IMG/VR virus record: IMGVR_UViG_3300017650_000020
Span: 1 to 35,115 of that record
Direction: 5' to 3' (one strand)
Source: a virus
Taxonomy: Duplodnaviria; Caudoviricetes
DNA: 35,115 nucleotides
The notes below the pieces were generated by a model. That model worked only from the letters and a program-made list of their open reading frames with translations, was not told the DNA's origin and did not search any database. How positions within the stretch are numbered: position 1 is the first letter of the stretch; every line of letters starts with the position of its first letter. Shown here in pieces: positions 1-14,317 of this stretch. Made by a program: the position numbers and the translations under genes.

Positions 1-184
1 CCTCGTTGAACACCACGATGCGGTGCCACTCGGTCTTTTCCTTGCGTTCACCGGTGGCCTTGTCCCGCCATGTCTCCGAGGTCGCGAGGCGGATGTTGGC
101 AATAGGACGGCCATCCTGCGTGCTACGTATCTCCGGATCGGCCCCCACGTTCCCAATCAAGATCACCTTGTTGACGCTGCTCAT
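1..184 (-). CDS. ssb: Single-stranded DNA-binding protein (runs off the window edge)
   Basis: Manual translation [61 protein letters not shown] is a canonical SSB N-terminus; ATGA overlap with the upstream stop. Confidence 0.96.
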
Positions 185-807
185 GCCGCTGCCCTCGTGT
201 CGGTGTCATAATTCCGGATGCGCTCGACCAAGACAGCCAAATCATCGTTGAACCGGTTGATCTCGTCGGACAGCGTTCGGATGAATTCCTCGTCGCGATA
301 CACGCGCACCTGGAGGATCGGCAGCTTCGGCCAGTAGGATACGAAATCCCACCACTCACGCTCCGAAATCCAGAGGTTGCCCTGCACCTGGGCGCGATGT
401 TCCGGCGGCAAACGGCCACGCTCCAGACGATCAATCTGGATATCTGGCAGGGCGGTTTTGATCTCCAGCCCGCCATTCGTGCCAACCAGACTGTCTGGCG
501 ATGCGCCGCGATTGCCGTTTCGGATGAAGCCGACGCGCTGGATTTCGGCGTCGTTGATGAACGCGTAAGTTTCCCGCGCCTCATCTTCCATCGCATTGCC
601 GCGCTCGGTATGGATGTTGGAGAATTGTTCGGCAGGTTCTCCGGTCAAGATTTCTCCGGCCAGTTTGCGCAGGTATTTTCCACGGGTTTTGCCATCTCCT
701 TTTGCGAGGACCGTAGAGAAGTTGCTTGCCGTGGGTATCCCCAATCTGGCGCGCATCCACACTTCAGATCCTTGTTCCAAGTCTGTGAAAACAACCATCT
801 CACTCAT
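181..807 (-). CDS. YqaJ/lambda-exonuclease family recombination nuclease
   Basis: EQGSEVW..AR.G..TAS, ASPDSLV, LEIK and QVQG motifs; GGAGG upstream of ATG 807; next to ERF and ssb. Confidence 0.9.
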
Positions 808-1355
808 TGGACATGCCTCCACGTCTTCATTTGCGCGATGGAAGAAATGTTTGCGGCGGTCACACCAAATTCGGCGGCGAGGTGCTTCCCGAGGCATCCT
901 TGAGATAGACGCCGCCTTATTTCGGAAACCTTCGCATCGGACAGCCGAGACATACCGTTCGCTGCGCCGCGCATGATGGTGCCGTGAAGCTCTTTGTCAG
1001 CTTCATTGGCTTGCGGCGTGTCCCACCGCAGATTCTCAAGCCGGTTGTCGCCAGAAATGCCATTTGAGTGGCACCCAAGATAACCGTCAGGGCAGGATCC
1101 AACGAACGCTTCAAGTACGAGCCGGTGCACCCATTTCCAATGATGCCTGCCTGACTTGCAAAGGCGAATGTTCTTGTGCCCGCTTTTCGATGTTTTCAGG
1201 GAAAGCGACTTCCCGCGCCTTGACCGGCCGTGAGACAAAATTCTGTCCACGCTACGAACGTTGCCTTTGCTCGAAACCTCGTAGTATCCCTCAAAGCCGA
1301 CAACCGGACGCCACGCCTCGCTTCCCTGCTCCAGATCAGTGAAAACCTGCATCAT
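804..1355 (-). CDS. NUMOD4-HNH homing endonuclease
   Basis: NUMOD4 motif (EAWRPVVGFEGYYEVSSKGNVRS), VHRLVLEAF, CHSNG..GDNRLENLRW HNH core and a C-terminal HTH. Confidence 0.92.
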   Translation of the reverse strand: MMQVFTDLEQGSEAWRPVVGFEGYYEVSSKGNVRSVDRILSHGRSRRGKSLSLKTSKSGHKNIRLCKSGRHHWKWVHRLVLEAFVGSCPDGYLGCHSNGISGDNRLENLRWDTPQANEADKELHGTIMRGAANGMSRLSDAKVSEIRRRLSQGCLGKHLAAEFGVTAANISSIAQMKTWRHVQ

Positions 1356-2092
1356 TTCCGACCCCGCTTTGCTTCGAGAGCTGTCGCGGCGCGCTTGAAC
1401 TGACTGGCGGAAATGTCCTCAAGGCGCGACACGCCCATGAACGCGAGGAAACGTTGGATATCTGCACCGGACTCAACGATCAGAGTGCGCAGGGTGCCGA
1501 CCTGATCTCCCGTGAGCTTGGCAACATTTGTGGCGCTGTTCCCGTCGTCATCATCTTCGCCTATGGCGACGTTGAAGATCATCTTGAGAAGATACCGGGA
1601 GCCGTAGGACACAGCAGCGCCCGTGGCATGTGTCTTGGTCATCACGTCGCCGCCCTTGGCACCCTTCCCGTCAGCAGGCATATCGACGTGATATGTCCGA
1701 CTGTGGCCGGCACGGTGCGACACCACGCAAACCACCCTGACATAGCTTTCAGCCGCGCCTTCGGACGTGTTGAAGCTCAGGGCGAACCCGTGTTTCGTGT
1801 AGATTTCCCGGAGGGCCTTATCTAAGGCGAAATAGGATGCGTATCGGCTCCGGGTCTGAGGATTGTTGCTGTCAGCAGCGACAGGGCGCATCTCAGCCTG
1901 CGCAACGGCCATAGCATTGTTGAATTCTTGCTCCGCCCCGCGGGACAGGACGCGCTCCTGCATCGCCAGCAGGCGCTCCATCTTGTCGATGTCAACATTC
2001 GGATCGCGGGCCGCCCGCTCGATCATGGAGACGATGGCGGTGGTTTCGCTAACCGCAACAGCGGCATCCTCTTTCCTGACAACTGGGTTCAC
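1352..2092 (-). CDS. ERF-family single-strand annealing protein
   Basis: DIDKMERLL, SRYAS, GAAVSYGSRYLLKMIFNVA.GEDDDDGN motifs; GGAGG upstream of the GTG start. Confidence 0.9.
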   Translation of the reverse strand: MNPVVRKEDAAVAVSETTAIVSMIERAARDPNVDIDKMERLLAMQERVLSRGAEQEFNNAMAVAQAEMRPVAADSNNPQTRSRYASYFALDKALREIYTKHGFALSFNTSEGAAESYVRVVCVVSHRAGHSRTYHVDMPADGKGAKGGDVMTKTHATGAAVSYGSRYLLKMIFNVAIGEDDDDGNSATNVAKLTGDQVGTLRTLIVESGADIQRFLAFMGVSRLEDISASQFKRAATALEAKRGRK

Positions 2093-3467: not shown

Positions 3468-3764
3468 GTGATGAAACTGCTGATTTCGGCGGCCATCCTG
3501 GTCGCGTCCGTCGCCTCTGCCAACGCGCAGTTCAATAATCGTTCCGGAGGATATGGATCGTCTTACGGATCACCGTACCGGAGCTATGGCACCGGATCGA
3601 ACCCCTCCAGCACCTATGTCCAGCCCCGGATCAACTCGAACGGCAATTATGTCGGCGGCCACCATCGGACTACGCCGAACAACACCCAATACGACAACTA
3701 TGGAAGCCGGGGGAATTATAACCCCTATTCAGGTCGGACCGGCTCTCGCAGCCCGCGTTGGTGA
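3468..3764 (+). CDS. Secreted Gly/Ser/Tyr/Asn-rich protein (moron)
   Basis: Sec signal peptide (…ASANA|Q), GGAGG RBS, own terminator; RTTPNNTQYDNY..RGNYNPY pattern. Confidence 0.8.
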   Translation: MMKLLISAAILVASVASANAQFNNRSGGYGSSYGSPYRSYGTGSNPSSTYVQPRINSNGNYVGGHHRTTPNNTQYDNYGSRGNYNPYSGRTGSRSPRW

Positions 3765-4341: not shown

Positions 4342-4884
4342 TCACGCTGTTATTGGCTTTGGAGGTACTTTGGAAAGATCATAGAAAAGTATGGGTGACT
4401 CGCTTTTTAGGTTTGCTTCGCTGCCAAGCAACACAAAACCACACGTCTCTTTATAGAATTTCACGGCCTGCTGTTTTGAATCCACGACAACGAAGCGGCA
4501 TCCAACCCATTTTGAGACATAAGTTCTCGCCACCCCGAGCGAGAAATCAACAAGATGCCTCCCCAAACCTATTCTTTGAAACCGCTTATCGACGGCAAGT
4601 CTTGCTATTTTTATAGCAGGACAATGACTATGCGTGAAATCGGTAACGCCAAGCTCTTCTGATGATTCTGCTTCGATTTGTCCGCATACCAACGTAATAT
4701 AAGCTACCAATTTTTTAGTATCGGTTTGAAATGCGCCATAGGTCTTAGCGAGATTTTGCTTCTGGTAGCTTTGCGCATGTTTGCTGAGGAAAGTTTTGAG
4801 CGGCACAAAATCGGGATGACCAAGAGAAAGCCCGGAGAATTTGTCTCCGGGCTGGATCTGCCTAATGTGTATGTCCTCAGCCAC
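4342..4884 (-). CDS. GNAT acetyltransferase of the TacT/AtaT toxin-like type
   Basis: LKTFL..HA, PAIKIARLAVDKRFQRIGLGRHL (acetyl-CoA motif A), GCRFVVVDSK..AVKFY…GF. Confidence 0.85.
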   Translation of the reverse strand: MAEDIHIRQIQPGDKFSGLSLGHPDFVPLKTFLSKHAQSYQKQNLAKTYGAFQTDTKKLVAYITLVCGQIEAESSEELGVTDFTHSHCPAIKIARLAVDKRFQRIGLGRHLVDFSLGVARTYVSKWVGCRFVVVDSKQQAVKFYKETCGFVLLGSEANLKSESPILFYDLSKVPPKPITA

Positions 4885-5062
4885 GCCTTAGCGTGAGCTT
4901 GACAGAGCCGTTGTTCTCCTCGAACTCGCGCAGCAACTTCAAGCCGCGCTCCATGCTCTGAACGGCAGCCTTTTTGGGGCGACCAAATTTGACTTGAGAG
5001 CGGAATTTTTCCGCATCAACGCCTGTAAGGACCACTCGCCCGAAAGAGTCCGATTTAATCAT
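4877..5062 (-). CDS. Small protein upstream of the GNAT gene, putative antitoxin
   Basis: AAGGAGG RBS; 8-nt overlap with the GNAT start; classic TA arrangement. Confidence 0.7.
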   Translation of the reverse strand: MIKSDSFGRVVLTGVDAEKFRSQVKFGRPKKAAVQSMERGLKLLREFEENNGSVKLTLRRG

Positions 5063-10720: not shown

Positions 10721-11269
10721 ATGAGCCGTAAGCCTATCAGCAAAAAGCTACGCTTCGATGTATTCAAGCGCGACGGGTTCCAGTGCGCCTATTGCGGCGC
10801 GCACCCGTCTGAAACAGTGGTCCTAGAGGTGGATCATATCCAGCCCGTCGCCTGCGGAGGTGGAGATGAGATCGACAATCTTGTAACGGCTTGCTTCGCC
10901 TGCAACCGTGGAAAGCGCGACGTACCGCTGTCAGCCATTCCGCATTCCATCGCGGAAAAGACCGAGCTTATTGCGGAGCGCGAGGCGCAGATCCATGCGT
11001 ATCACGAGGTATTGGCCTGGAGGCGACAGCGGCGACAAGAAGAACTTGACGCCGTAATCGATATCTACATCGCAGAGTTCGGACGCGATGAGATGACCGG
11101 GCAGAGGATTTCCAGCATACGCATGTTTTTGGATCGCATCGACGTTTTTGAGGTGCGGGAATCTATGGAGCTGGCGGTAGAGCGTAAACAGTACGCTCAC
11201 CCTGCTTTTAAATACTTCTGCGGAATTTGCTGGAACAAAATCAAGAATGCTGAGGGCGTCCGTGTCTGA
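10721..11269 (+). CDS. HNH endonuclease (Zn-finger type)
   Basis: RFDVFKRDGFQCAYCG, LEVDHIQP…GG…NLVTAC..CN.GK. Confidence 0.9.
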   Translation: MSRKPISKKLRFDVFKRDGFQCAYCGAHPSETVVLEVDHIQPVACGGGDEIDNLVTACFACNRGKRDVPLSAIPHSIAEKTELIAEREAQIHAYHEVLAWRRQRRQEELDAVIDIYIAEFGRDEMTGQRISSIRMFLDRIDVFEVRESMELAVERKQYAHPAFKYFCGICWNKIKNAEGVRV

Positions 11270-13729: not shown

Positions 13730-13833
13730 ATAGCGGGTATAAACTAATCACGTCCATTGCAGGTACACCCGCACAGTCGTAGGGTAAAAGTCGAGATGTG
13801 GGACTGCGCCCTGATGGGTAGTAATCCCGATAA

Positions 13834-13940
13834 TCAGTGCGGCGGCGTGGATGGACACGCCCTCGGGCGGCCACATGTCCTAGGTCTCCGTAGCTTCGAG
13901 CTAAAAACGTGGAGCCGGTATCAAGCCCGGTCCGCACTGA
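13834..13940 (+). ncRNA. tRNA-like cloverleaf RNA (non-canonical)
   Basis: 9-bp closing stem TCAGTGCGG/CCGCACTGA, D-like arm GCGTG-GATGGA-CACGC, T-like arm GCCGG-TATCAAGC-CCGGT. Confidence 0.6.
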
Positions 13941-14060
13941 AACCCTCGGCAAGTCGTCCTGTCTCTCCGAACTGTCTCCGGATGGAGGCGTGCCCGTCTC
14001 TCGGCGGGATAGGAAGCAGGACGCATCAGACTTATGTGCAGAAAATGCACAGAACTCGGG

Positions 14061-14084
14061 CCGCCCCTCACCGGGCGGTTTTTT
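14061..14084 (+). terminator. Late-leader terminator (tR'-like)
   Basis: CCGCCC-CTCACC-GGGCGG-TTTTTT. Confidence 0.8.
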
Positions 14085-14098
14085 CATTGGGTGAACAC

Positions 14099-14317
14099 AT
14101 GACGCTTGACCCGACCACTTATGAGTACCTGAACCCCACAGACGAGCAAAATATGGCGATGTCCCGAGTTCGGGCTGCGGCCAAGGCATATTCGGACATT
14201 CTGGACAGTGAGCTTCCGGACGGACCCGACAAGACGTTTGTTCTCCGCAATCATCGGTCGAATGCAATGTGGGCAAACGTTGCCATTACCCGCCATCCCA
14301 ACGGTTCGCCGCGGTGA
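14099..14317 (+). CDS. Acb2/Tad1-like helical hairpin protein (putative anti-defence sponge)
   Basis: Y..PT.EQ…..VR.AAK……..LP.G.DK………MWANVAI.R pattern. Confidence 0.6.
   Translation: MTLDPTTYEYLNPTDEQNMAMSRVRAAAKAYSDILDSELPDGPDKTFVLRNHRSNAMWANVAITRHPNGSPR

Follow-up and report, generated by a model that had tools for sequence, protein, structure and literature searches.

A predicted 5′-replacement homing cassette at the exonuclease gene of a P22-like phage

Described homing systems and the phage locus

Homing elements that restore their host gene by replacement and not by splicing form a third category, much rarer and described from yeast in the accessible part of the account (bioRxiv 10.64898/2026.08.13.744650). 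These WHO elements, found at yeast FBA1, consist of an endonuclease gene and a variant allele covering part of the host gene; they are eukaryotic, with a LAGLIDADG enzyme and a replaced 3′ half, they occur in tandem clusters at sites that are open to re-invasion once occupied, and their cleavage has been demonstrated, according to the same portion of the preprint (bioRxiv 10.64898/2026.08.13.744650). In mobile ORFs of fungal mitochondria (Allomyces atp6; Glomus atp6, atp9, cox2 and nad3), a terminal duplication comprises a native piece that matches relatives and a divergent, foreign copy carried by the endonuclease ORF, in some cases in phase with the host gene, as far as the available part of the report goes (PMC3630166). 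Intronless homing is associated with co-conversion of flanking DNA and with domain swaps between nuclease genes in the accessible sections of three further reports (PMC2988022, PMC10448857, PMC12724721).

The window, i.e., the whole stretch of 35,115 nucleotides analysed here, belongs to a P22-like phage (portal, coat and terminase were found by Pfam). Four genes lie in a row on its minus strand: an ERF single-strand annealing protein (1352..2092; PF04404, E = 1e-15), a NUMOD4-HNH endonuclease of 183 aa with an intact frame (804..1355; PF07463 and PF13392), an intact YqaJ exonuclease of the lambda-exonuclease family (181..807; 208 aa; PF09588) and an SSB truncated by the window end (1..184; PF00436). 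The ERF stop overlaps the HNH start in an ATGA at 1355-1352, and the HNH stop overlaps the YqaJ start in the same way at 807-804. The YqaJ product gives a full-length family match with the motifs QG..W..R..TAS, PD, E-x-K and Q, and matches the LHK and lambda exonuclease structures (E = 6e-24 and 8e-14, respectively). Its nearest relatives among named genomes are for the most part Rhizobiales, and the host is therefore likely an alphaproteobacterium, to judge from these sequence affinities.

Elsewhere in the window we noted a GNAT acetyltransferase gene with a small overlapping upstream ORF adjoining the repressor region (4342-5062, minus strand), which resembles a bacterial GNAT toxin-antitoxin pair, and an ORF oriented opposite to the early operon (3468-3764, plus strand), whose product starts like a signal peptide and has a body rich in Gly, Tyr, Ser and Asn. 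A second HNH gene of another type (PF01844) follows a gene with a DnaA C-terminal HTH domain (10721-11269, plus strand). Upstream of the terminase, the product of 13757-14317 (plus strand) has a C-terminal Acb2/Tad1 hairpin domain barely over the Pfam cut-off (E = 4e-6) and is possibly an anti-defence protein.

The endonuclease, called NUMOD4-HNH in the sequence-only reading of this DNA, is I-HmuI-like: 1u3e was the top match both by profile (E = 4e-21) and by fold (E = 8e-8). Both Pfam domains exceeded their cut-offs, with NUMOD4 N-terminal (residues 13-65; 1161..1319) and the HNH nuclease domain behind it (residues 74-118; 1002..1136), and the structure model places a predicted three-helix, HTH-like DNA-binding domain at the C-terminus (helices 140-151, 156-163 and 167-174; 834..938). 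An alignment of 17 relatives shows no variation at H96, N108 or N117; immediately before the catalytic His, the window protein has C and I-HmuI has D. The intron-encoded I-HmuI has the NUMOD4 and HNH architecture in common with the window protein, to which it is 25% identical, but has a different C-terminal domain and no leader.

We propose that the locus is probably a 5′-replacement homing cassette, predicted to comprise a captured YqaJ start, the HNH gene and a YqaJ gene with a donor 5′ end, and to spread without an intron or intein. Like the WHO elements, in the available part of their description, it would combine an endonuclease with a different allele of a host-gene segment and leave YqaJ intact. 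Unlike them, it uses an HNH enzyme, replaces the 5′ end and would target YqaJ, its stranded piece is the nuclease N-terminus, its cleavage is predicted, and its nuclease bodies were apparently swapped, not stacked as in the WHO tandem clusters. The mitochondrial mobile ORFs are C-terminal and of the LAGLIDADG or GIY-YIG type in the accessible part of their description (PMC3630166), and the phage arrangement would be their mirror image. On this comparison the cassette would work like a WHO element, yet it appears to be a member of neither group and may be called a counterpart mirrored to the 5′ end. As with T4 Seg and Mob (PMC2988022), the nucleases of an ICP1 survey (PMC10448857) and the I-HmuI-like HNHs of Skunavirus (PMC12724721), the nuclease sits beside its likely target gene and is translationally coupled; in the available parts of these reports the free-standing nucleases are located between genes, whereas the phage cassette captures the start of its target in frame. 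By its layout it can be regarded as a special case of intronless homing.

A likeness to a natural cut-and-rescue gene drive, drawn by the earlier reading, turned out to be loose because such drives kill non-carriers; replacement-allele homing of the WHO kind is closer. SXT/R391 elements supply a new 5′ end to prfC. They integrate in the 5′ end of that gene (PMC5812530) and resemble the cassette in occupying a gene's 5′ extremity, but in the available part of the description they are integrase-mediated, reversible and without a homing nuclease. A literature search, mostly outside subscription journals and without supplements, found no description of this layout in phage in the portions available.

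The duplicated start of the exonuclease gene

The HNH gene opens with a 15-codon leader (1311..1355) that is in frame with the nuclease and represents the start of the resident YqaJ allele, and the replacement 5′ end of the downstream YqaJ gene (757..807, hereafter the copy) duplicates it. Comparison of 1346-1311 with 792-757 reproduced the reported match exactly, with 11 of 12 residues identical and 7 of those 11 codons synonymously different; 10 of the 36 nucleotides differ, amounting to seven synonymous changes and one replacement. The window pair agrees at 10/10 residues and 0/668 mismatched pairs of leader and next gene reach 8/10, so the likeness is not chance. The identity of 11/12 is also higher than to any YqaJ allele retrieved. 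A repeat finder detected no direct repeat spanning the duplication. The atypical MSEMVVF start of the copy arises because its first codons overlap the HNH stop in the ATGA.

The Pfam NUMOD4 match begins at residue 13, which confirms that its start coincides with the junction. The E-A-W at 1319-1311 can therefore be read either as the end of the YqaJ motif, which aligns with lambda exonuclease, or as the usual NUMOD4 start (in 80 of 85 parsed HNH sequences, counting that of the window, E lies two places before W); the crossover probably fell there. A new RBS had also been claimed for the rebuilt exonuclease. A Shine-Dalgarno-like GGAGG is indeed present at 816..820, 8 nt 5′ of the YqaJ ATG, but it is spelled by the HNH gene's own terminal W-R codons (TGG AGG), and GGAG or GAGG occurs at that spot in 8 of the 27 HNHs ending W[RK]H[VIL], as well as at a ybcO locus (L242, below).

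The A/T-rich 5′ end noted for the exonuclease gene was seen in direction (GC3 in 28/50 of the first 50 codons vs 113/158 after), but its strength was weak (Fisher p = 0.055; p = 0.006 only with a 60-codon cut chosen afterwards), and 3 of 18 other window genes have an equally large 5′ dip. In codons 17-38 (694..759), codon agreement with 41 relatives was 0.30 of conserved residues vs a mean of 0.43, a value as low in only one of the 41 relatives; the other seven bins were ordinary (one bin of eight, uncorrected). This stretch of odd codon choice is a candidate for a resistant version of the target site.

Since leader and copy are in register, excision of the part between them would leave one whole gene, as expected if the HNH lay in a cryptic intron or a ribosomal bypass joined the leader to the rest of YqaJ. 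We regard this as scarcely credible: the downstream YqaJ is complete, with its own start and RBS, and Rfam gave no match in 1-2600 at E up to 1. The latter result, together with separate ORFs that each have their own stop, agrees with the intron-less and intein-less placement described before.

By its start word, the leader is the native exonuclease start. Among 47 distinct HNH-free YqaJ alleles, 25 begin like the HNH with MM[QE][VI][FY] and none with the VVF of the copy, as the sequence-only reading would have it. The YqaJ start at locus L157 has the same 12 residues as the leader of one HNH homologue (P0020), and that at L002 is nearly the leader of another (P0009). The further prediction that the 5′ DNA of HNH-free alleles matches 1355-1311 was borne out for the start word but not at synonymous sites. 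Over the last eight codons, the copy was closer to 30 and the leader to 13 of the 47 alleles, with four ties, and discriminating codons numbered 50 for the copy and 41 for the leader, these alleles being too distant for a DNA comparison to inform; the nearest HNH-free relative found has 80% amino acid identity, and YqaJ relatives differ synonymously at 40-58% of conserved codons. Over the first 36 nt the leader was closer in 15/15 alleles, which is partly circular, as these had been picked for a leader-like start.

An HNH gene beside YqaJ is optional. None of the 43 YqaJ-selected viral loci with an ERF hit has an HNH between ERF and YqaJ, whereas a leaderless HNH directly precedes YqaJ at 9 of the 80 HNH-selected loci, the five best viral loci among them. 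ERF upstream of YqaJ is 22-59% identical among the 43 loci, and in 11 of them a 3′-5′ exonuclease gene lies between the two. The ERF-YqaJ junction is an insertion hot spot. The optional 3′-5′ exonuclease gene is of at least two types and overlaps ERF and YqaJ (L002-L004, L006-L008, L028-L031, L037, L125 and L157).

The closest relatives of the window HNH are leaderless proteins encoded between ERF and YqaJ, and HNHs of other types at this junction also overlap or abut the ERF stop (L051, L064, L092, L105 and L106). This contradicts the proposal that the nuclease took over the coupling to ERF by taking the native start. With leaderless, ERF-overlapping relatives at the same junction, the free-standing leaderless HNH is likely the ancestral form, and the coupling likely predates leader capture.

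Recurrence at other phage genes and apparent exchange of nuclease bodies

About 3700 NUMOD4 stretches occur in the viral collection. To survey other genes, 516 loci were reduced to 225 NUMOD4 ORFs, 188 of them distinct, and then to 135 (window included) after 53 without nine in-frame upstream codons or without a downstream ORF were dropped; at least 8 of 10 residues had to be shared between the leader and the start of the next gene. The layout recurs: 4 of the 134 other NUMOD4-HNH genes duplicate the start of the next gene, against none of 668 mismatched pairs (maximum 7).

Captured starts belong to ybcO (L242:1444-2303, G484; between ninB/ybcN and rusA in an enterobacterial-type prophage), to a RuvC-like gene (L239:1366-2468, G351; a long leader of ~34 codons, with a foreign 5′ end of ~300 nt in the next gene) and to a Sak4-like AAA_24 gene (L236:2504-3670), and an HNH at L398:1256-2214 shares 8/10 start residues with a RusA-like resolvase. 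Leader and copy agree at 11/12 residues with nine synonymous codons in L242, at 11/12 with six in L236 and at 11/13 with six in L239. The same W-R-H-V-derived RBS and ATGA overlap as in the window were seen at L242. Five-residue matches from the start codon occur at L294:1274-2213 and L400:3-1380, where the next genes are of unknown function.

The DNA asymmetry predicted for the window, i.e., that HNH-free alleles match the leader and not the copy, was observed at two of these sister loci. In L239, all seven HNH-free alleles are nearer the leader (mean 34 vs 26 of 39 nt), discriminating synonymous codons favour it 35 to 2, and the copy is 45-73% identical to the HNH-free alleles over its first ~300 nt and 78-93% thereafter. 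In L242, the two closest HNH-free alleles match the leader at 40 and 35 of 45 nt vs 31 for the copy (all 16 YbcO alleles: weak asymmetry, 10 vs 6), and L491 aligns unbroken through the upstream gene into the L242 leader. The 5′ end of the copy is thus of foreign origin at both loci. In L236, both copies look A/T-rich by eye, and so does the end of the preceding DUF6378 gene, whose 3′ half the A/T-rich stretch also seems to include; the leader at this locus may therefore have a source other than the present host.

These loci bear on the claim that the window copy was recoded in place, i.e., that insertion duplicated the 5′ end and the copy was then respelled under selection against cleavage and deletion. 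The 11/12 identity is higher than to any retrieved allele, and the atypical codons are restricted to codons 17-38, as this would lead one to expect. However, natural alleles show the same synonymous divergence: in ten natural YbcO alleles, 55% of conserved codons differ synonymously (3-10 per pair), so the 9 of 11 in L242 need no special recoding, and the YqaJ range given above is comparable. The replaced region of L239 is long and dissimilar to relatives, and seven synonymous changes against one replacement are what would be expected of two alleles both selected as YqaJ. We consider recoding in place distinctly improbable. Because natural alleles differ as much and the L239 region extends so far, a foreign allele from another phage, brought in with the nuclease, is the most likely source of the 5′ end of the copy. 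A YbcO DNA match was found in 3820 of 5426 E. coli genomes.

The leader is not general to NUMOD4-HNH proteins, as a YqaJ-type leader was found in only 3 of 119 homologues: EQGS in P0009 and P0020, and a shorter start recognised by eye in P0017, all three known here from protein sequences alone. The window protein (P0001), P0009 and P0020 have 15-16 of 16 junction residues in common; among 102 others, none reach 16 and two reach 15. A single clade of these three bodies was rejected (p-AU = 2e-5; 17-row tree), each grouping with leaderless proteins. HNH bodies thus appear to have been exchanged behind the same leader; the junction is near the family consensus, as the two others reaching 15 indicate, so independent captures are possible. 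The P0020 cluster has five members that vary at three positions, every one of them in the leader (p = 3e-4), and the body is invariant; the leader changes (D to G, S to N) are as compatible with decay as with renewal from recipients.

Retention of its amino acids on three HNH bodies could mean that the leader peptide is selected at the protein or translation level, e.g., because it adjusts how much HNH is made or contacts YqaJ or ERF as a partner. This is very unlikely, given that it is absent from 116 of the 119 homologues and varies in front of the invariant P0020 body, that residues 1-10 of the window HNH are modelled at low confidence (mean pLDDT 53) without secondary structure, and that the leaders at other genes are unrelated. 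A lack of structure, and variation confined to the leader in the P0020 cluster, would also suit a neutral relic, in which two phages recombined a single time, joining a YqaJ start to a neighbouring free-standing HNH and leaving a decaying leader idle in spread. The phage itself supplies an annealing protein and an exonuclease, and leaderless HNHs are commoner at the same site. Against this stand the near-identical junction on three unrelated HNH bodies, leaders that match different living YqaJ alleles, and four loci that keep 11 of 12 or 13 residues despite six to nine synonymous changes, and we judge a neutral relic unlikely.

In three other sequencing runs (X7, X9 and X11), contigs span the junction between HNH and YqaJ and differ from the window at 6-27 positions over 232-529 nt (4 of the 19 runs with a match examined). 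One X9 contig joins the leader and NUMOD4 start to a YqaJ ~77% identical, the distance between the pieces not being given. One contig in X11 matches 1320-1358 as well as YqaJ downward of 677 and is possibly an HNH-free allele that resembles the leader; the spacing of its pieces is likewise not given, and it is not counted here. ERF 1378-1519 had no read cover in the four runs examined, which proves nothing, and no RNA run was among those listed with a match.

Searches for further leaders gave little. A locus search with P0001 alone returned one distant locus and one with P0020 alone nine loci, none with a leader-bearing HNH, and a region search found no further leader. The 150 hits of a phmmer search of representatives with 45 residues came mostly from proteins in which NUMOD4 stretches are repeated. 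Scans for the DNA pattern of the leader-NUMOD4 junction gave no match in viral contigs and, in metagenomes, the record of the window itself plus two fortuitous hits within a peptidase gene. NUMOD4 genes were present in 2/401 and 3/401 of the genome samples.

A proposed route of spread and its implications

As the ancestor of the favoured homing cassette, one can envisage a free-standing HNH gene located immediately before the YqaJ of a donor. Conservation of the gene upstream of YqaJ is poor, so repair would find little homology on that side and cross over at the E-x-W codons common to YqaJ motif I and the NUMOD4 start. Such a crossover would fuse the recipient's start to the HNH and import the donor 5′ end, which, respelled by ordinary divergence, would escape cleavage and be a poor partner for recombination with the leader. 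In later rounds, the HNH would nick HNH-free YqaJ alleles near the 5′ motif, and repair would use the cassette as template, pairing through the leader on one side and the downstream YqaJ on the other. The leader would provide a homology arm that lies within YqaJ and does not depend on the gene before it, and other HNH bodies may later have been swapped in behind it.

More tentatively, and with less confidence than we place in the cassette itself, these loci may represent a widespread phage class of 5′-replacement homing elements, making up ~3% of the sampled NUMOD4-HNH genes, a rough frequency as the sample was collected by similarity and patterns. The stranded start would then be both the nuclease start and an arm renewed in each recipient, and the leader with the first NUMOD4 strand would be a landing pad on which rival bodies displace one another, in a WHO-type arms race within recombination genes.

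If the cassette reading is correct, phages have repeatedly reached a WHO-type solution at gene 5′ ends, mostly of recombination genes (YqaJ, Sak4-like, RuvC-like, RusA-like and YbcO), and the arrangement would account for the retention of both homology arms by a free-standing nuclease whose upstream neighbour is not conserved. Duplication between a leader and the next gene would be a simple signature of the likely target gene of a nuclease. Gene starts adjoining HNH genes may be foreign, which calls for caution in phage phylogenies and annotations.
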